UHGV virus genome: UHGV-0074437
DNA: 28,657 bases
DNA from: a virus
Reading direction: 5' to 3' (one strand)
Shown here: one piece after another, positions 2,932 to 27,141 of the stretch
Layout: every line of letters begins with the position of its first letter
Numbering within the stretch: the first letter of the stretch is position 1
Notes under the pieces: generated by a model
Databases searched by the model: none
What the model saw: only the letters and a program-made list of their open reading frames with translations
What the model was told of the DNA's origin: nothing
Made by a program: the position numbers and the translations under genes

Positions 2932-3483
2932 ATGAATGATATTTCTATCGAATATCTGAAAGAAGCACTGGAATACACACCAGATTCAGGTGTTATCCGT
3001 TGGAAGCAGCGCCCCAAAAATCATTTTAAGACCGATAATTCTTGGCGGGCGACCAATGCCAATTTTGCCGGAAAGGTGGCAGGCGCACGTGATAATGATG
3101 GATATTTCCGCATCGGAATAGATGGTCGGTTATATAGATCTCATCGTGTCGCCTGGGCGTTACATTATGGCTATTGGCCTGAGAATGAGATTGATCACAT
3201 TTCAGGCGATAGAGGTGATAACCGCATAGACAACCTCCGAACAGTGACTTCGGCAGCCAACAACAAGAATTTGCGCCTTTACTCCACTAATAAAACAGGT
3301 GTCCCTGGCGTAGGTTGGTATAAAGCACGTGGGAAGTGGAGAGCAAAGATAAACGTCTCTGGAAAGGTGAAGCATATTGGTTACTTCGATGATTTCTGTG
3401 AAGCGGTGAAAGCAAGAAAGGCTGCTGAGATGAAATTGCAATATCACGAAAATCACGGAGCCGGCGACAGGCTCACTTTCTAA
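2932..3483 (+). CDS. HNH homing-type endonuclease with a C-terminal AP2-like DNA-binding domain
   Basis: 183-aa ORF; HNH_3-like motif HRVAWALHYGYWPENEIDHISGDRGDNRIDNLR followed by an AP2-like segment GVPGVGWYKARGKWRAKINVSGKVKHIGYFDDFCEAVKARKAAE; RBS-like AAAGG upstream. Confidence 0.75.
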   Translation: MNDISIEYLKEALEYTPDSGVIRWKQRPKNHFKTDNSWRATNANFAGKVAGARDNDGYFRIGIDGRLYRSHRVAWALHYGYWPENEIDHISGDRGDNRIDNLRTVTSAANNKNLRLYSTNKTGVPGVGWYKARGKWRAKINVSGKVKHIGYFDDFCEAVKARKAAEMKLQYHENHGAGDRLTF

Positions 3484-3497
3484 AAGGTAAAGACGCA

Positions 3498-4016
3498 ATG
3501 AATCATCAATTGGCTAATCTCGATTTCCGGGACATGGTGGTTGTTTCTGGTGATCGCGTGATCACAACCTCCCGCAAGGTAGCAGCTTACTTCGACAAGC
3601 AGCATCACCACATCATTCAGAAAATCGAAAAGCTAGACTGTTCGGATGAATTTCTAACCAGCAACTTTTCGCGGGTTACCTATGAACACAAGGGTAATCA
3701 GTATGTTGAATATGAAATTTCCAAAGACGGCGCGATGTACATCATCATGTCGTTTACCGGCAAAAAAGCTGCCGCCATCAAAGAGGCGTTTATCAAAGCA
3801 TTTAATTGGATGCGTGACAGGCTGATGGAGATGGCTCACTCATACCAAAGAGAGCACAACGAGTTAATGCTGGAGTTCATGAAGGAAAAGGATGTTGCCA
3901 GTATGTCAGGACGCTTGCTGAACCGCTGGGGCAGGATCAAAAAACCGCAACTCATAGCAAGAATCGAAAGGCTTGAGCAGCAGGCGCAAATATCGATCCC
4001 CGGACTGCCAAAGTGA
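3498..4016 (+). CDS. Rha-family phage regulatory protein
   Basis: 172-aa ORF; N-terminal region (VVVSGDRVITTSRKVAAYFDKQHHHIIQKIEKL...YEISKDGAMYIIMSFTGKKAAAIKEAFIKAFNWM) fits the Phage_pRha family pattern as recalled; RBS AAAGG 6 nt upstream. Confidence 0.7.
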   Translation: MNHQLANLDFRDMVVVSGDRVITTSRKVAAYFDKQHHHIIQKIEKLDCSDEFLTSNFSRVTYEHKGNQYVEYEISKDGAMYIIMSFTGKKAAAIKEAFIKAFNWMRDRLMEMAHSYQREHNELMLEFMKEKDVASMSGRLLNRWGRIKKPQLIARIERLEQQAQISIPGLPK

Positions 4017-4446: not shown

Positions 4447-4944
4447 ATGGCAAAGCTCACCGACAAACAAGAGCTGTTTGCCCATCCGGATGATGTGTAT
4501 GTCGGAGAGTGTGTGATTTATACCGGCTACATAAATAAGCGAGGGTATGGGCAGAAGCACATTTCACGAAAGCCGCACTACGCACATCGAATCGCATACT
4601 GCGAAGCTAACGGAATTTCGCTAGATAGCATCAAGGACCTGGTTGTTAGGCATAAATGCGATAATCCATCATGCGTGAATCCTGACCATCTGATTATAGG
4701 TACTGTCGCTGACAATAATCGTGACAGGTCAAGGCGAGGCAGAAACTCATACCCTGACCGTTCAGGTGAAAAGAACGGAATGGCGAAATTAAAAGAGTGC
4801 GATGTCATCTGCATTCGACGTGAATATGTCCGCGGGAGCATTGGTAGGGGGCTTAGATCCTTATCAGAGAAATATGGCGTATCGACGACCATGATTGCTG
4901 ACATCGTTAATTATAGAAATTGGAGCAACGTTTCGGGGGTGTGA
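4447..4944 (+). CDS. HNH endonuclease (terminase-associated type)
   Basis: 165-aa ORF; motif HRIAYCEANG...RHKCDNPSCVNPDHLIIGTVADNNRD, typical of zinc-binding HNH endonucleases; located immediately upstream of the terminase small subunit, the usual position for HNH proteins that assist terminase cleavage. Confidence 0.8.
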   Translation: MAKLTDKQELFAHPDDVYVGECVIYTGYINKRGYGQKHISRKPHYAHRIAYCEANGISLDSIKDLVVRHKCDNPSCVNPDHLIIGTVADNNRDRSRRGRNSYPDRSGEKNGMAKLKECDVICIRREYVRGSIGRGLRSLSEKYGVSTTMIADIVNYRNWSNVSGV

Positions 4945-17100: not shown

Positions 17101-19105
17101 CGCAGATACGATTAAAGATTTCCTTGTTTCGCTGGGATTCGATATCGATCAGGCTGGCGCTAATAAGTTTGAAGCCGTGCTGAAAGGCGTTACCGCGAAC
17201 GTTCTGAAGGTCGGCGCTGTGGTGAAAGGCTCAGCGCTTAGCATTGTCGGATTTACCACCCAGATCGCGAATGGTCTGGATAAAATTTACTGGGCATCCC
17301 AGCGGACGGGGGCCAGCGTCCAGGGCATCAAAGCGCTGGGCTATGCCGCATCGCAAACCGGTGCCAGCGCCGAGTCGGCCATGTCCTCTCTTGAAGGGTT
17401 GGCTGGTTTCATGCGTAGCAATCCGGGGGCGGAAGGGTTCCTGAACCGTCTGGGCGTACAGACCCGCGATGCCAGCGGAAAGATGCGTGATACTGCGGCC
17501 ATCTTTACTGGTGTTGGGCAAAAGCTCAACAACATGCCGTATTACCGCGCGAAGCAATACGCGCAGATGCTCGGCATCGATGAAAACACGCTGATGGCGA
17601 TGCGCAGAGGGATGGGGCAGCTCAGTTCTGAGTACGCGTTGACGGCAAAGCGTATTGGTTTTAATGCTGAGTCAGCGGCTAAACAGTCCAATATTTTCAT
17701 GACCTCCATGCGTAATCTGACGATGACGCTTGGACAGGCGAAAGACAAGATTGGCTCTAACTTGGCTGGTGGACTTGCTGGCAGTATTGATAACTTCCGC
17801 AGGCAGATACTCGACAACTGGCCGAAGATTGAAGCAGTCATCACGAAGATCATCAAAGGAATTCTCTGGGCAGGTGACGCGATTACCCGCGTGTTATGGC
17901 GAACTGGGCAAGCTGTTGAGGGTGTGATCGCCTGGTTCAAAAAGCTGAACCCAGCCACGCAGCAGCTTATCGCATTGTTCAGTGGGCTGTTGGTTGCATG
18001 GCGGCTGCTAAATACCGCTTTCATGTCATCACCCTTGGGCATGATAACCACGCTTATTATTGCGCTTGGTCTGCTCTGGGATGATTACCAGACGTGGAAA
18101 GAAGGCGGCAAAAGCCTGATTGACTGGGGGAAATGGAAAACTGAAATTGATCAGGCCGTCAAAATGATTGGCGACCTGAAAAAGACTGTTACGGATCTGA
18201 CAAAAGCGCTGGCTAAGTTGCTCGGTATCGACCCCAAGTCATGGTCCCTAAAGTGGGATTTTAGCAACTTCATTTCGCAAATGGGTGAGTTCGGCAAGAT
18301 GCTGAACATGATCGCTGATTTGCTGAATGCCATAAAAGATGGCAACTGGGCGCAGGCCGCTAGTATAGGCAAACAGCTGCTAAATCAGGGCAGCGAAAAT
18401 CCGTCAGCGATGCCGATGGTAACAGACAGCGCCAACGGTACCGCCGACTGGATTAAAGAGCACTGGGGATTCGATCCTCGCAGCGTGGGCCGAACGGTGC
18501 GCGGCTGGTTCGGTGATGATGAGCCTGAACAGCTCGGCCAGTCAGTTAAGCGGCCACAGCCAACCAAAGCAGGCTCTGAACTGCTGGGATGGATGCAGCC
18601 GATGTTTACCAACCTGGAACAGCTCTACCGGCTTCCGGAGGGGTTATTGCGCAGCGTGGCCATAACGGAATCGGGCGGTAATCAGTTCGCCGTTTCAGGC
18701 GCTGGCGCGAAAGGTCTGTTTCAGTTTATGGATGGCACGGCGCGCGACATGGGCCTGCGTGGCAATGATGTATTCGACCCGGAAAAGTCAGCTCAGGCAG
18801 CCGCTAAGTACCTCAGCCAGCTGTTGCGGCAGAACGGCGGAGACCTTAGCAAAGCACTGGCATCATATAACTGGGGGATCGGGAATGTTAAGCGTTATGG
18901 AATGGGGCTAATGCCGCAGGAAACGCGCAACTACATTCCGAAAGTAATGAGCAATATGCCCACCAGCGCCCCGGTGATTCAGCAGGAAACGAATATTAAC
19001 ATCCACGGTGTTTCCGATCCGCGTGAAGCTGCCCGTTTGACTGTTGACCGTCAAAAGGGCGTGAATTCACAGTTAACCCAGCAACTCCCCGCAGGACCGA
19101 GATAA
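17090..19105 (+). CDS. Tail tape measure protein with a C-terminal lytic transglycosylase (SLT) domain
   Basis: 671-aa ORF after the chaperone/frameshift; hydrophobic central segments; C-terminal motif LLRSVAITESGGNQFAVSGAGAKGLFQFMDGTARDMG...ALASYNWGIGNV with the catalytic-type ES pattern of family-1 lytic transglycosylases. Confidence 0.85.
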   Translation: MSGNADTIKDFLVSLGFDIDQAGANKFEAVLKGVTANVLKVGAVVKGSALSIVGFTTQIANGLDKIYWASQRTGASVQGIKALGYAASQTGASAESAMSSLEGLAGFMRSNPGAEGFLNRLGVQTRDASGKMRDTAAIFTGVGQKLNNMPYYRAKQYAQMLGIDENTLMAMRRGMGQLSSEYALTAKRIGFNAESAAKQSNIFMTSMRNLTMTLGQAKDKIGSNLAGGLAGSIDNFRRQILDNWPKIEAVITKIIKGILWAGDAITRVLWRTGQAVEGVIAWFKKLNPATQQLIALFSGLLVAWRLLNTAFMSSPLGMITTLIIALGLLWDDYQTWKEGGKSLIDWGKWKTEIDQAVKMIGDLKKTVTDLTKALAKLLGIDPKSWSLKWDFSNFISQMGEFGKMLNMIADLLNAIKDGNWAQAASIGKQLLNQGSENPSAMPMVTDSANGTADWIKEHWGFDPRSVGRTVRGWFGDDEPEQLGQSVKRPQPTKAGSELLGWMQPMFTNLEQLYRLPEGLLRSVAITESGGNQFAVSGAGAKGLFQFMDGTARDMGLRGNDVFDPEKSAQAAAKYLSQLLRQNGGDLSKALASYNWGIGNVKRYGMGLMPQETRNYIPKVMSNMPTSAPVIQQETNINIHGVSDPREAARLTVDRQKGVNSQLTQQLPAGPR

Positions 19106-19731
19106 TGGATATTTTATCAGCGATTTTTCGCCAGCAATCCCGGCGAATTGGCCTGCTGATCCCCAGCGTGGTCGTCTCCGAAAAGCATTCTGATGCGCTC
19201 GAAATTACTGAGCATCCGGTGGAGAAGCCAACAACGAATAGCGCGTCGGGTTTCATCGCCGATCATGCGTATAAGCGTCCCAGCGAAGTCACAATGGAAT
19301 GCGGCTTCGCTGGTGGCGGTTCGTTGCTGGACTTCATTGATACATCTTCAATCGGTCTTAGCGCTGGGCTTAGCCCAAAGGAGACATACCAAAAGCTGCT
19401 GGATATGCAGCTTGAGCGCGTACCGTTCGATGTGGTTACCGGGAAGAGGGTGTACAGCAATATGCTGGTGCGAGCCATTGAGGTGACGACCGATAAAACC
19501 AGCGAAAACGTGCTGAACTGCACGCTTACCCTGCGTGAAGTCATCATAACGCAGACAAAAAATGTCACCGTTGCTGATAAATCCGATATGCAGGACGGGG
19601 TTAGTACATCTGCGGTGCAGAATTCCGGGACTAAATCCACCACCCCGGTAAATGAATCGGTAATTAAGTCAACAGGGTGGTTTGATGGACTAAAAGGAAC
19701 CAGTCTTGGTAACTCTATAGGTATCCAATGA
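19105..19731 (+). CDS. Putative tail or baseplate protein
   Basis: 208-aa ORF whose ATG overlaps the tape measure stop, between the tape measure and baseplate genes; no specific motif recognised. Confidence 0.45.
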   Translation: MDILSAIFRQQSRRIGLLIPSVVVSEKHSDALEITEHPVEKPTTNSASGFIADHAYKRPSEVTMECGFAGGGSLLDFIDTSSIGLSAGLSPKETYQKLLDMQLERVPFDVVTGKRVYSNMLVRAIEVTTDKTSENVLNCTLTLREVIITQTKNVTVADKSDMQDGVSTSAVQNSGTKSTTPVNESVIKSTGWFDGLKGTSLGNSIGIQ

Positions 19732-20033
19732 ATGTAACTGAAATCCCTTTATCGCCGGATAACCAGCTATTTCGCATTCAGTTAGCAGAGACAACATACA
19801 CGCTGAGAGTCATTTGGCGTGATTCTGCTGGCTGGATTCTGGATGTACAAGATAGCAGTGGCGCACCGCTTCTTTCTGGTGTGCCGCTGGTAACCGGTGT
19901 AAATCTTCTTGAGCAATATCCTCAACTAGGTATTAACGGGGCGCTGCTCGTTGGCTGCGATGTAGGCGCACCGGACGAGCCCACCAAAACCAACCTCGGC
20001 ACATACAGCCACCTCATTTTCGTACAGGAGTAG
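19728..20033 (+). CDS. Putative small baseplate-associated protein
   Basis: 101-aa ORF translationally coupled (ATGA overlap) within the baseplate gene string. Confidence 0.4.
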   Translation: MNVTEIPLSPDNQLFRIQLAETTYTLRVIWRDSAGWILDVQDSSGAPLLSGVPLVTGVNLLEQYPQLGINGALLVGCDVGAPDEPTKTNLGTYSHLIFVQE

Positions 20034-20035
20034 AA

Positions 20036-21106
20036 ATGTCTCTTAACTGGATGCGCCATTTTGAGTTGCAGCTGTTGGACCAGAACGGGCAGGGCGTTTC
20101 CCTGTCTGACTTTAAGGTCACATTCCAGATCGAGTGGGCAGACACACGCTGGCCGCGCGTGGCTAACGTAAAGGTCTATAACCTTTCTACCACCACCACT
20201 AATAAGATCCTTGGGCAGGAGTTTGCCAAAATTCGCATCATTGCCGGGTATGACGGTATAGCGCCGGATGTTGATGCGAGCCAGGTTGGTGTGTCCCGGG
20301 AGATTTCACCAGACCAGATAGGGCAGGTGAACGGTCAGAACTACGGCCTGATTTTTGACGGTGATATTCGCTTCACCGTCACCGGGAAGGACAACATTAC
20401 GGATTCCTGGGTGTTGATTCAGGCCATTGGTGATCACGAAGCGTTCCTCTATGCGACCACCATCACCACGCTTGCCGCTGGCTATACCGTTGCGGACCTG
20501 CACCGGGCGACGATGCAGGATTTCAACGCGTTCGGCGTGACACAGGGCATTACCGGCGATTTTCCTGATACCGTGTTTCCTCGTGGCCGCGCGATTTACT
20601 CATCCAGCCGCAACGTGATGGATAATATTGCTGCGCAGTGCAAAGCGACATGGCAACTGGTGGATGGTCAGGTCCAGATGGTGCCGGAGGATAAATATAT
20701 TCACGAAGCCATTGTGTTGAATGCCGATACTGGCCTGATCGGTATGCCGCAACAAACGATGGGCGGCGGCGTAAACGTGCGGTGTCTGATAAACCCGAAC
20801 ATCCGCATTAATGGTCTTATCCAGCTCGATCAGGCTTCGGTGTACCGCGCGACAGTTGGCAACTCCGATATTGCGCAGTCGCTTGGGCGGATCGGGACGT
20901 CTGTATATAATGGGAACATCGAAAGTGACACGTTACCCAGCAAACAACAGGCTGCCAGCATTGCGACAGATGGCGTTTATATCGTCAAAGCTATCGACTA
21001 TACTGGTGACACCAGAGGTCAGGCGTGGTACATGGATTTGATGTGTTTTGCGCGTGGGGCTCGTGATCTTTATAGCCCGAAAGCAATGCAAGGGACGACG
21101 AATTAG
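20036..21106 (+). CDS. Putative baseplate hub protein (Mu gp44 / P2 gpD-like by position)
   Basis: 356-aa ORF with AGGAG RBS, upstream of the spike V, W-like and J genes, matching the Mu-type baseplate gene order as recalled. Confidence 0.5.
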   Translation: MSLNWMRHFELQLLDQNGQGVSLSDFKVTFQIEWADTRWPRVANVKVYNLSTTTTNKILGQEFAKIRIIAGYDGIAPDVDASQVGVSREISPDQIGQVNGQNYGLIFDGDIRFTVTGKDNITDSWVLIQAIGDHEAFLYATTITTLAAGYTVADLHRATMQDFNAFGVTQGITGDFPDTVFPRGRAIYSSSRNVMDNIAAQCKATWQLVDGQVQMVPEDKYIHEAIVLNADTGLIGMPQQTMGGGVNVRCLINPNIRINGLIQLDQASVYRATVGNSDIAQSLGRIGTSVYNGNIESDTLPSKQQAASIATDGVYIVKAIDYTGDTRGQAWYMDLMCFARGARDLYSPKAMQGTTN

Positions 21107-21118
21107 TGAGGTGGGGCC

Positions 21119-21463
21119 GTGAGACATTTACTTTGCACTGTTACCGTGTTCGCGGTGCTTATATCAGCACCAGCTTTTGCGGATCAGCAATGTGGTGATT
21201 TTAAAATCCATTGGGCAGATGATGGCTTAGCCAGAATCAATGGCGCAAAGCCAGAAATGCAAAAAATCACCTTCCTGAAAAACAAAGGCGATTATAACAA
21301 TATCAAGATGGATTGGCGTATGGCTACCGATCAGCCTGGAAGATGGGTTGGTCTTGAGTACATCAATCGAAACGGCAAGATAATTCTCAATGCCCAGTGG
21401 CTGCAAGCCAGCATGAATGCGCCGCGTCAGTATGCAACATACGACTGCCGAAAAGTAAAATAG
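21119..21463 (+). CDS. Small secreted (periplasmic) protein of unknown function; moron candidate
   Basis: 114-aa ORF with GTG start at 21119 and GAGGTGGGG RBS; clear Sec signal peptide (hydrophobic core, AFA-DQQ cleavage site); two cysteines in the mature part; region is markedly AT-rich relative to the flanking structural genes. Confidence 0.55.
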   Translation: MRHLLCTVTVFAVLISAPAFADQQCGDFKIHWADDGLARINGAKPEMQKITFLKNKGDYNNIKMDWRMATDQPGRWVGLEYINRNGKIILNAQWLQASMNAPRQYATYDCRKVK

Positions 21464-21481
21464 CCCGCCAGATAGGCGGGC
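21463..21481 (-). terminator. Intrinsic terminator for the minus-strand moron gene
   Basis: Perfect 7-bp GC stem GCCCGCC-agata-GGCGGGC; a U-rich tract follows on the minus strand (plus-strand AAAAGTAAAATA at 21450-21462), whereas no T-tract follows on the plus strand. Confidence 0.55.
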
Positions 21482-21486
21482 ATGCG

Positions 21487-21777
21487 TCAAAAATATTGAG
21501 CTTTAATTATAATAAACACAATAATTACGAACAGGATGTTTCTAATTATTTTTTGCTTATGAGTAAGTTGTTTTTTTTCTGTCGATTTCCCGGGAGAGTA
21601 AAGGTTAGTGGTATGCGACAGCCCCGTGCCGGGAAGGCCATTTGTCATCTTTACGCCTTTTTTCCCGATGTTAATGGTGGAACCTTTACCACCAATTGAA
21701 GTGCTTACTCCGCTTTTGCTAATGTTGATCGCGAGTCCGGGCGCAATCCGGATTCTTTTGCGAAATCTAAAGCCCAT
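21487..21777 (-). CDS. Small membrane-anchored protein, DUF4236-like N-terminus (as recalled) with C-terminal transmembrane helix; moron candidate
   Basis: 96-aa ORF on the strand opposite to the whole structural operon; strong RBS AGGAG 6 nt before the ATG; Gly/Lys/Ser-rich N-terminal segment GFRFRKRIRIAPGLAINISKSGVSTSIGGKGSTINIGKKGV; C-terminal hydrophobic helix NILFVIIVFIIII; AT-rich codon usage. Confidence 0.55.
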   Translation of the reverse strand: MGFRFRKRIRIAPGLAINISKSGVSTSIGGKGSTINIGKKGVKMTNGLPGTGLSHTTNLYSPGKSTEKKQLTHKQKIIRNILFVIIVFIIIKAQYF

Positions 21778-21964
21778 TTGTTACTCCTGTAGTCAAGAAT
21801 GCGATGGTGCAGGTCCACTCTATGGCGGCTTCATGGCTGAAATTGATTTTTAATGCTTACTTGTTGCAAATATATCCTAATACACCTTGTGAATATGTGC
21901 CATTGCAGCGGAAAAGCCTTACTTCACACTGATGTAGCTTAGTTACTAAGAGATAATTGATACC

Positions 21965-21990
21965 AAACCAGCTTCGGCTGGTTTTTTTAT
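21965..21990 (+). terminator. Intrinsic terminator (UUCG-loop hairpin plus T7 tract) immediately upstream of the baseplate spike gene
   Basis: AAACCAGC-ttcg-GCTGGTTT followed by TTTTTTT, then GGGG and the ATG at 22000; no annotated plus-strand gene ends here. Confidence 0.55.
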
Positions 21991-21999
21991 GGGGTTTTT

Positions 22000-22740
22000 A
22001 TGCCAATTCCTACTCAATCACAGATCGGCGGCGAGCAGCAGACCGCGCAGGCCATTGCCGATTCGGTGTCTACTCAGATGCGCGTAGCGATGCCTGGCAT
22101 CATTCAGTCGTTCGATCCTGACGCTGTAACCTGCACAGTAGAGGTGGCGCTTCGCGGTATTGTTGGCGACGACTCCACCGAATTAAAACCGCTGGTGGAT
22201 GTGCCTGCCATCTTCCCGCGCGGAGGCGGTTGCACGCTGACCTTTCCGGTAAAAGAAGGAGATGAGTGCCTGCTGATCTTTGCCGACCGTTGCATCGATT
22301 TCTGGTGGCAGAGCGGCGGCGTTCAGGAGACCGTCGACCCGCGCCAGCATGACTTATCTGATGCGTTCGCCATCGTTGGCCCGCAGTCGCAAGCGCAAAA
22401 AATCAGCGGTATCAGTACCAGCGCCGCGCAGCTGCGAACCGATGATGGTGCGGCGTTCGTAGAGGTTTCCGCAGGACATAACATCACCGTTCAAACACCG
22501 GGCCAGCTCACGGCTACGGCTGAAGGTGGAACGACAATCACATCCCCGACTATCACGCTGAACGGCAACGTAACGATTAATGGCAATCTGTCTCAGGGAA
22601 TGGGAGAAAGTGGTGGTACTGCGACGATGCTTGGGCCGGTTACGGTAACGAATGATGTGACAGCTTCAGGTATAAGTGTCGCCACGCATAAACATGGCGG
22701 AGTTCAGACAGGCGGGGGAACTACTGGAGGGCCGCAATAA
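22000..22740 (+). CDS. Baseplate spike / assembly protein V-like (Mu gp45 type)
   Basis: 246-aa ORF; N-terminal OB-fold-like region then a Gly/Thr-rich repetitive C-terminus (TITSPTITLNGNVTINGNLSQG...), typical of gpV/gp5-type spikes; followed by W-like and J genes. Confidence 0.7.
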   Translation: MPIPTQSQIGGEQQTAQAIADSVSTQMRVAMPGIIQSFDPDAVTCTVEVALRGIVGDDSTELKPLVDVPAIFPRGGGCTLTFPVKEGDECLLIFADRCIDFWWQSGGVQETVDPRQHDLSDAFAIVGPQSQAQKISGISTSAAQLRTDDGAAFVEVSAGHNITVQTPGQLTATAEGGTTITSPTITLNGNVTINGNLSQGMGESGGTATMLGPVTVTNDVTASGISVATHKHGGVQTGGGTTGGPQ

Positions 22741-25977: not shown

Positions 25978-27141
25978 CTATCTGGCTTGAGATATTGAAA
26001 TAGATTTTGTTTTCCGCCCATACATCAAACGGCTAAGCGATATAGATGGGTTATCTATAAGCTTTGTAAATAAATGTGCTATTATTATGCTTGTGGGAAT
26101 CGTAAACACCCATACATAAATTGGGCTGTATTTATATAGTAAAAGTAACCCTATAGAAAGAATTGTATAATGTATAAGGTATAGCGAGAAAGATATTCTC
26201 CCAAGATAAAGACCAACAGACAGGAACTTACCCTCTTTTAATTTAAGTGAGCACACGATTAATCCAACGGCACCGATAGATGTCACAATATCACCAAGAC
26301 CTCTGTGTGATAAAGTCCATCCATTATTAAATGGGTAGCAATACAGCATTAAAGAAATTATCACCAGCAGGAATATGATTTTCTTGTCTATATTATTCAT
26401 TATTTCATTAGTTCTTTTCACATTTAAAGCAAGGTATGCACCAATTGTAAAAAATAACGAGTAATGAACTGTTAACAGGCTTGAGCTTAGGGGGTCTATA
26501 CCGTATAGATGCGGTTTAGAGTTCATGATAAATATACTAAGCATCGATGCCAACAAGGATAGCAGCACAAAGCGAAAGCCAAGTTTTTTCGTAAAGTACA
26601 GAATTAAAGGAAACGCTATCGAAATTCTAGCCTCGTAAACTAAGGACCATGCTGGAGGGTTTATTTCGAAGTAATTGTAAAACCCCAGCATGCCAATGTG
26701 ATTAACTATTGTTGCTAGATTGAAGTCTGGTTTTGCTACGCCCATCCATCCTTTTTCCCAGGAAAAACCACTTGATTTCATGACTGCAAAGACAATAGCC
26801 ACAAATAATAATGATGCAATGAATGGAATGTATAGGCGAGCTACCCTGGCTAACAGATATCTAAACATATTAAATGGATTTGCTGAGTTGATCATCATTG
26901 TTAAAGCAAACCCACTCAACACAAAGAAAACAATAACAGCTTGATGTCCAGCCCACAGAAAGCGAAATGGTGACCATTCAAGATACGGCCAGATAGTGGG
27001 GTTGTTATATAATCCAGCAACGGTTGTGTGAGCAAGCAAAACCGTTAGAGCAGCATAACCCCTAACTGCATCAAGAGATGGGATTCGTTTTGTATCTTTC
27101 ATTACTATTCTCATTTTAGTTTGTTGAGTCAATACTAACAT
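25978..27141 (-). CDS. Acyltransferase family 3 integral membrane protein (putative O-antigen / LPS O-acetyltransferase, lysogenic-conversion type)
   Basis: Minus-strand ORF with about 10 predicted transmembrane segments; N-terminal region KRIPSLDAVRGYAALTVLLAHT...FFVLSGFALT matches the acyltransferase_3 (OafA/Oac-type) signature; strongly AT-rich. Three candidate in-frame ATG starts (27141, 27114, 27102); the third gives MKDTKRIP, the usual N-terminus for this family. Confidence 0.8.
   Translation of the reverse strand: MLVLTQQTKMRIVMKDTKRIPSLDAVRGYAALTVLLAHTTVAGLYNNPTIWPYLEWSPFRFLWAGHQAVIVFFVLSGFALTMMINSANPFNMFRYLLARVARLYIPFIASLLFVAIVFAVMKSSGFSWEKGWMGVAKPDFNLATIVNHIGMLGFYNYFEINPPAWSLVYEARISIAFPLILYFTKKLGFRFVLLSLLASMLSIFIMNSKPHLYGIDPLSSSLLTVHYSLFFTIGAYLALNVKRTNEIMNNIDKKIIFLLVIISLMLYCYPFNNGWTLSHRGLGDIVTSIGAVGLIVCSLKLKEGKFLSVGLYLGRISFSLYLIHYTILSIGLLLLYKYSPIYVWVFTIPTSIIIAHLFTKLIDNPSISLSRLMYGRKTKSISISQAR

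Follow-up and report, generated by a model that had tools for sequence, protein, structure and literature searches.

The window analyzed here, a stretch of 28,657 nucleotides of the UHGV virus genome UHGV-0074437, is the late region of a temperate myovirus under lambdoid regulation, with a Q antiterminator, a lysis cassette, the terminase, and head and tail genes. Among its baseplate genes, two small open reading frames that converge on each other lie between the baseplate hub gene (20036-21106, plus strand), which forms the left backbone flank, and the baseplate spike gene (22000-22740, plus strand), which forms the right one. The first (21119-21463, plus strand) encodes an exported protein of 114 amino acids that is modeled as a beta-barrel, and the second (21487-21777, minus strand) encodes a protein of 96 amino acids with a DUF4236 domain and a C-terminal membrane anchor. 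An earlier reading of the same DNA, referred to here as the original prediction, had described 21107-21999 as one inserted island carrying a paired periplasmic and membrane protein. The list of open reading frames confirmed both genes, and profile matches confirmed the end of the hub gene at 21106 (phrog_196 'baseplate hub', E value 3e-81, with a weak match to PF22759) and the start of the spike gene at 22000 (the spike N-terminal domain, PF18352, E value 8e-41, and Apex, PF18946). We conclude with high confidence that the architecture of 21107-21999 is one of two adjacent, independent accessory loci rather than a single inserted island. An exchangeable moron slot, holding the DUF4236 gene, stands beside a hub-linked gene for the 114 amino acid protein, an arrangement that is ordinary for the add-on genes of prophages.

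The boundary between the two loci was placed by base-by-base comparison with related loci. Identity to four of these (L003, L004, L005 and L008) stops at the stop codon of the 114 amino acid gene (21463) and resumes at 21980, within GGTTTTTTTATGGGGTTTTT ahead of the spike ATG, and every base of 21464-21979 is replaced in relatives with other cargo. Since the break falls exactly at the stop codon, the exchangeable unit, a cargo slot to which no strand is assigned, is 21464-21979, and the 114 amino acid gene lies outside it. Of the proposed two-gene insert, the part that stands is therefore the DUF4236 gene in its variable slot. Nearly the whole cassette (21464-21964) is 98-100% identical in E. 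coli genomes in which identity over 1.5 kb, flanks included, falls to 88-90%; a cassette more similar than the region containing its flanks is the pattern of an exchanged module. The original prediction had also suggested comparing related prophages for a variable insert at the hub/spike junction, and that comparison found the slot variable and the 114 amino acid gene nearly always present.

The slot has the marks of a moron. Variable DNA occupies a fixed position, with other cargo in L003-L008 and L011-L013; the base composition deviates, with a G+C content (GC) of 0.40 against 0.53 in the hub gene and 0.57 in the spike gene; and the cassette contains a terminator of its own, the hairpin at 21463-21481, identified, like the plus-strand terminator described below, by a pattern scan. 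Over the whole of 21107-21999 the GC is 0.432 (0.449 in the 114 amino acid gene, 0.402 in the DUF4236 gene and 0.396 in the intergenic stretch), compared with 0.530 in the hub gene, 0.568 in the spike gene and 0.537 in the late region. The dip that had been called sharply AT-rich is genuine yet moderate.

The hub/spike junction is present in 42 complete E. coli genomes. Strain PEC422 has the same content as the window, and ET791 has the 114 amino acid gene followed by an open reading frame of 53 amino acids. In ABWA45 a homologue of the 114 amino acid protein is followed by a Phd/Doc toxin-antitoxin pair, in UPEC 26-1 and AF20 a 119 amino acid homologue (assigned to the STY1065/STY2022 family in the AF20 record) is followed by proteins of 185 and 70 amino acids, and in 2021CK-01361 a 122 amino acid homologue is followed by a protein of 145 amino acids. 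AR_0118 has a lone lipoprotein of 371 amino acids. The first position is thus held by a homologue of the 114 amino acid protein in each of these strains other than AR_0118, where the lipoprotein stands instead, and the cargo of 185 plus 70 and of 145 amino acids consists of membrane proteins. Three further occupants of the slot come from Klebsiella and E. coli phages: an antisense protein with a zinc ribbon, a membrane helix and a tRNA_anti-like (OB-fold) domain (L011, 2869-3537, minus strand), a 188 amino acid protein with no family match (L012, 3108-3674), and a 170 amino acid protein with an R-N-N-L-F-H motif (L013, 2824-3336). Pfam, NCBIfam and PADLOC gave no function for most of the neighboring cargo, the exceptions being a TM2 domain and the zinc-ribbon, tRNA_anti-like protein; there were also sub-threshold matches to Mu F-like and related families. 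In a decayed prophage of E. coli E89 (L002, 925-3009) the hub and barrel genes are truncated pseudogenes abutted by head genes, and the DUF4236 gene is intact, its protein accession being identical to that of PEC422. The slot resembles the hotspots of P2/P4 prophages (PMC9122126) in its fixed position between conserved genes and in the exchange of unrelated cargo, here including a toxin-antitoxin pair. It differs from them in phage lineage and in position, at the hub/spike junction, and in carrying mostly small membrane proteins rather than recognized defence systems.

The gene on the hub side of the breakpoint, which has a GTG start, begins 12 nucleotides past the hub stop codon with no terminator between, and we therefore read it as a member of the late operon; a promoter-like site within the hub gene (20976-21004) scored no better than chance. 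Its product matches phrog_3443 over its full length (E value 3e-45) and is 63% identical to a phage-derived RefSeq protein of the "STY1065/STY2022 family" encoded at the equivalent position after a hub gene, so that both profile and position place it in this family. The family is uncharacterized: Pfam, NCBIfam and PADLOC contained no match to the 114 amino acid protein, and a search of the literature found no relevant paper on STY1065/STY2022. It is also small, with 56 representatives at 50% identity among 1.84 billion proteins. In almost all of the relatives examined (from E. coli, Klebsiella, Citrobacter and Hafnia), the gene that comes next after the hub encodes a homologue; these relatives include Citrobacter phage Omnitron, Klebsiella phages ST405-OXA48phi1.2, ST340-VIM1phi10.1 and GZ7, Escherichia phage vB_EcoM-683R1, more distant E. 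coli prophages and one Hafnia prophage; further tblastn matches, at the sequence level only, were to Yersinia phage YP3, Klebsiella phage Mulock and Salmonella phage SEN34. Identity of the homologues to the 114 amino acid protein ranges from 32 to 72%, compared with 59-91% for the hub in the same relatives. Relatives with a hub about 90% identical and a sheath initiator 98-99% identical have a homologue at 63-72%, and those with a hub about 60% identical have one at 40-52%. These values indicate a gene that has diverged together with the backbone, faster than its neighbors.

Residues 1-21 of the 114 amino acid protein (21119-21181) form a predicted Sec signal peptide, MRHLLCTVTVFAVLISAPAFA, with cleavage after AFA and ahead of DQ, and a Kyte-Doolittle 19-residue mean of 1.94. 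The A-x-A motif is kept across 46 homologues (alignment A1), in agreement with the secretion that had been predicted, and the structure model has low predicted local distance difference test (pLDDT) values at residues 1-20. All members of the family have the N-terminal signal peptide, and in the mature part C25 and C110 are invariant. Column identity averages 0.86 in the C-terminal half and 0.72 in the more variable N-terminal part of the mature protein, where the N-terminal third varies among members. Export also holds for variants of this position. In two relatives (P0201 and P0225) the barrel is fused to the end of a lipoprotein whose N-domain comprises about 190 residues, and the 371 amino acid lipoprotein of AR_0118 (L007, 1804-2919) shares that N-domain (E value 4e-7). 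In one Hafnia prophage the first position is taken by a different protein of 158 amino acids, which also starts with a signal peptide. The lipoprotein in AR_0118 and the signal peptide of the Hafnia protein lead us to the view that, whatever gene follows the hub, its product is exported.

The mature product is modeled as an eight-stranded beta-barrel. Following cleavage by signal peptidase, it would be released to the periplasm as a disulfide-bonded barrel of 93 residues. Barrel residues 62-98 contain the motif x-W-...-G-x-x-Y-I-x-R-N-G-K-x-x-L-x-x-x-W-L, which aligns to avidin strands (hhalign probability 51%). The motif resembles avidin strands 6-7, including two tryptophans that in avidin contact biotin, and the remainder of the protein does not align. 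We rejected membership in the avidin family (PF01382), since there was no Pfam match and the resemblance consists of fold-level similarity and one local motif. The likeness to avidin, streptavidin and other calycin-like eight-stranded barrels, including the PliC-type lysozyme inhibitors, is local only; the 114 amino acid protein is about 35 residues shorter, and the invariant columns of the family show no conserved Tyr/Ser/Asn set of the kind that contacts biotin. A lipocalin, the Cap15 barrel and a type VI immunity protein can also be named beside it.

We suggest that, during infection, the barrel would target either the cell envelope or the tail tips of incoming phages, in exclusion or in receptor- or entry-blocking. 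This envelope-level role is drawn from its export, its disulfide, its fast divergence and the lipoprotein variants. Several phage exclusion proteins (T5 Llp, Cor, P1 Sim and T4 Spackle) are small, have their genes beside those for tail or receptor-binding proteins, and reach the periplasm or the outer membrane by export. The barrel is likewise small and exported and has lipoprotein-anchored relatives, but no match to any of the four in sequence or fold was found, and its own exclusion role is conjectural. Cor is among the exclusion proteins covered by Cumby et al. (PMC3594210).

The 96 amino acid protein had been called DUF4236-like, and it is a true DUF4236 protein, scoring 73.6 bits against PF14020, where the gathering threshold is 27. 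Its domain occupies residues 3-55 (21613-21771, minus strand) and covers profile positions 1-54 of 55; a low-complexity linker and a hydrophobic C-terminus follow. The predicted transmembrane helix was upheld: residues 77-96 (21490-21549, minus strand) form a hydrophobic anchor with a Kyte-Doolittle 19-residue mean of 2.05 at residues 77-95. The domain is strongly basic, with 10 K/R and zero D/E over residues 1-56 and a net charge of +10, and the protein is modeled (pLDDT 80) as a six-strand beta-meander with a helix at residues 73-95. We found 192 DUF4236 homologues. The order of domain, linker and membrane helix is the commonest layout among them, and many have 90-115 amino acids with a matching hydrophobic tail. 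Some have an SH3 domain beyond the membrane helix, and one lacks the helix and ends in an FtsK-gamma domain. On these grounds the 96 amino acid protein is probably anchored in the inner membrane by its tail with the basic DUF4236 domain facing the cytoplasm, an orientation suggested by the positive-inside rule, the SH3-bearing homologues and the FtsK-gamma homologue. The PF14020 family has no described function; a search of the literature found a single paper that mentions it, in passing, and Pfam, NCBIfam and PADLOC assign the protein no known function beyond DUF4236. Profile and structure searches thus identified a family for each protein (phrog_3443 and PF14020) and a function for neither, and the original prediction had likewise recognized none; the viral structure library gave no match at an E value of 0.001 or better.

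The slot cassette would therefore be an antisense unit for a tail-anchored inner-membrane protein, with signals of its own, two of which had been predicted and are present. The ribosome binding site is an AGGAG 7 nucleotides ahead of the ATG. The intrinsic terminator (21463-21481, minus strand) has the form GCCCGCC-loop-GGCGGGC, with 7 G-C pairs in its stem, and only on the minus strand is it followed by a T-rich tail. The 5' region of the gene (21778-21964, minus strand) is the presumed promoter site and includes, immediately ahead of the ribosome binding site, a conserved leader of 49 nucleotides (21783-21831). It shares 80% identity with the stretch that precedes another DUF4236 gene, in an unrelated lambda-like prophage of Leclercia (L018, 4947-4995; E value 2e-6). 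The sharing of this leader indicates that the DUF4236 gene and its leader move together. The leader is also partly common to the related prophage L031. The idea of a structured leader found no support, as the consensus fold reached only -3.7 kcal/mol with little covariation.

On the plus strand, a second intrinsic terminator closes the slot (21965-21988). It consists of AAACCAGC-TTCG-GCTGGTTT, the last three T of which begin a run of seven T (21982-21988), and ATGGGGTTTTT (21989-21999), which contains the spike ribosome binding site, sits between it and the spike ATG. The terminator is thus 11 nucleotides upstream of that ATG and abuts the ribosome binding site. Most relatives have a stem-loop and T-run at the equivalent place, with differing stem sequences. 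Since nothing lies between the terminator and the ribosome binding site, the spike gene must depend on read-through for its expression. The lambda Q protein renders late transcription resistant to terminators, and a lambda-Q-type late antiterminator is encoded at 545-1168 on the plus strand (PF03589, Antiterm, E value 1.3e-57), which accounts for late read-through of the terminators around the slot. By analogy with established lambda and HK97 biology, plus-strand transcription in the lysogen would stop at the slot-closing terminator, and during lytic growth the Q-modified polymerase would read through it. The plus-strand terminator and the Q antiterminator were absent from the original prediction, as was the lack of a convincing sigma-70 promoter described below. 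A candidate IsrK small RNA (RF01394) at 21905-21987 on the plus strand was rejected: it scored 23.4 bits against a gathering threshold of 50, mostly from the terminator, its fold z-score of 0.03 was no better than that of shuffled sequence, and its middle hairpin is deleted in the relative L002.

DUF4236 genes elsewhere recur in the tail modules of phages. In a lambda-like prophage of P. syringae the gene lies between tail genes K and I/J, and in the lambda-like Leclercia prophage between the tape measure and M, antisense. In a metagenomic siphovirus and in C. difficile phage phiCD146 it lies between the chaperone and the tape measure, in Pasteurella phage Pmp2 two genes from the hub, and in Acinetobacter phage Ab11510-phi a short way ahead of a very large gene, the probable tape measure. 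Several C. difficile phages have it at about equal map position. Its neighbors in these tail gaps are often small exported proteins or lipoproteins unrelated to the barrel, which is a lead and not an established association. In two Photobacterium loci (L036 and L037, 4950-6250 in each) a gene encoding DUF4236, a membrane helix and SH3 is followed by a gene for a cytoplasmic protein of 179 amino acids with the sequence R-N-S-L-V-H, an R-x4-H motif. This unit of about 1.35 kb is 96-100% identical in two otherwise unrelated contexts and may be a mobile two-gene module.

The closest functional comparison is with HK97, the phage in which morons were defined. The definition of a moron (Juhala/Hendrix) and the superinfection exclusion function of HK97 gp15 are covered by Cumby et al. 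(PMC3594210), as is the dependence of this exclusion on the incoming phage's tail region. HK97 gp15 is a small inner-membrane protein with a single membrane span, as the 96 amino acid protein is predicted to be, and each is the product of an add-on unit in the tail operon of a Q-regulated temperate phage. In HK97 the gp15 moron is followed by ACCCGC...GCGGGTTTTTTTT directly ahead of the tape-measure ribosome binding site, so that there, as at 21965-21999, an intrinsic terminator ends the unit and its T-run abuts the ribosome binding site of the next tail gene. The chaperone/tape-measure position of DUF4236 genes in other phages is also the gp15 position. The two proteins have no sequence relationship, and HK97 does not appear among the 40 of the 49 matching phage records that were listed. 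With 62 amino acids, gp15 has an N-terminal membrane helix, is encoded on the sense strand and lacks a DUF4236 domain, whereas the 96 amino acid protein is encoded antisense and combines a basic beta-meander domain with an anchor at its C-terminus; exclusion, the known function of gp15, is conjectured for it.

We propose that the DUF4236 protein would be made from the prophage and would block entry of the incoming phage genome at the inner membrane, as gp15 does in HK97. The argument comes mainly from the repeated linkage of DUF4236 genes to tape-measure and tail-tip genes, and a function in superinfection exclusion at the inner membrane is offered tentatively, as a plausible assignment short of a probable one. 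For the locus as a whole, we regard a barrel of the late operon next to a moron slot with an entry-blocking DUF4236 protein as the best explanation, and hold it with moderate confidence. Several observations weigh against this explanation. The promoter-gene-terminator layout that had been described stands in its low GC, its antisense orientation and its terminator, but the gene's own promoter is only presumed: on the minus strand of 21778-21999 no sigma-70 promoter matched at 9/12 or more, the best matching at 8/12, and expression of the gene in the lysogen is thus an assumption. PADLOC-DB 2.0 contained no defence component matching either protein. DUF4236 genes are also carried in ordinary chromosomal contexts and by lytic jumbo phages, so the domain is not specific to exclusion. 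Since the barrel gene has no separate promoter above chance, the barrel may be made only late in infection, which suits exclusion less well than constitutive expression would. Finally, for both proteins the exclusion reading is one from sequence and analogy.

The chief rival assigns the DUF4236 protein a membrane-level role other than entry exclusion, as an abortive-infection or toxin-like effector, a modulator of lysis or of the holin, or a host-fitness factor. The slot does also host the Phd/Doc toxin-antitoxin pair, the Photobacterium DUF4236-SH3 gene travels with its R-x4-H partner in two contexts, DUF4236 genes occur outside phages, and a domain with a net charge of +10 could act through its basic cytoplasmic face. 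However, no known defence family was matched, the cassette has no partner gene, and a function in tail-mediated entry accounts better for the repeated association with tape-measure and tail-tip genes. We judge this rival somewhat unlikely.

The pairing put forward in the original prediction, in which the convergent genes form one horizontally acquired periplasm-plus-membrane system for defence, anti-defence or exclusion, fares worse and is improbable. The two genes are adjacent and convergent on a common hairpin, both fall below the backbone GC, and elsewhere DUF4236 genes often neighbor the small exported proteins and lipoproteins mentioned above. The pair moreover recurs in the same arrangement in distant members of the myovirus lineage (Klebsiella phage GZ7, Hafnia, and E. 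coli AZ147 and LHM10-1), as would follow if DUF4236 had long occupied a slot beside a conserved gene. Against a system stand the breakpoint between the two genes, the divergence of the barrel gene with the backbone, and the exported protein that holds the first position regardless of cargo. Profile searches of all the loci compared also found the barrel without DUF4236 in at least nine (L003-L006, L008, L009 and L011-L013), and DUF4236 without the barrel in L014-L021 and L023-L028, which include at least five other phage lineages. The two genes do not form an obligate pair, as either can stand alone. The observations of the original prediction were confirmed, and its interpretation was supported in part, as a moron slot and not as a two-gene system.

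A further reading, in which one protein or both would be conserved parts of the virion or of tail assembly in ordinary structural sequence, is very improbable: the barrel gene belongs to the late operon and its synteny extends to nearly all relatives, and DUF4236 genes occur in tail modules, in several C. difficile phages at about the same map position, but the signal peptide, conserved cysteine pair and lipoprotein relatives of the barrel are incompatible with cytoplasmic virion assembly, and the DUF4236 gene is antisense and is swapped for unrelated genes in otherwise intact relatives.

Other features of the window complete the setting. The contractile-tail baseplate block that flanks the locus also includes a Dit-like protein (19105-19731), the plug (19728-20033), the sheath initiator and baseplate J. 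A second antisense gene of low GC (0.37) lies past the tail-fiber genes (25978-27141, minus strand) and encodes an Acyl_transf_3 membrane acyltransferase of 387 amino acids (E value 1e-31). Acyltransferases of this type are usually tied to O-antigen modification and lysogenic conversion. The related prophage L031 has an acyltransferase at the matching position. Between the lysis cassette and the terminase lie two HNH endonuclease genes and a Rha-family regulator (2932-3483, 3498-4016 and 4447-4944, plus strand).

These findings overturn no current understanding, and the locus is of an already known kind, a moron slot in the tail operon of a Q-regulated prophage, here carrying two uncharacterized protein families. 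It is interesting to speculate, although we think it unlikely, that tail-anchored DUF4236 proteins are widespread and as yet undescribed phage-entry blockers, linked to tape-measure and tail-tip genes in temperate phages of Gram-negative and Gram-positive hosts, and that they may act with an exported neighbor, here the barrel, as an envelope-spanning exclusion device whose specificity would co-evolve with the tail tip. The exported barrel, conserved throughout a phage lineage, is an uncharacterized and rapidly diverging envelope protein. In this lineage of enterobacterial myoviruses the hub/spike junction forms a hotspot for cargo whose breakpoints are exactly defined, and it could be mined for more. 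DUF4236, a large family without a function, now has a repeatable genomic signature in tail-module gaps near the tape-measure and tail-tip genes of several unrelated phages, which makes the idea of a role in superinfection exclusion well motivated and cheap to test.

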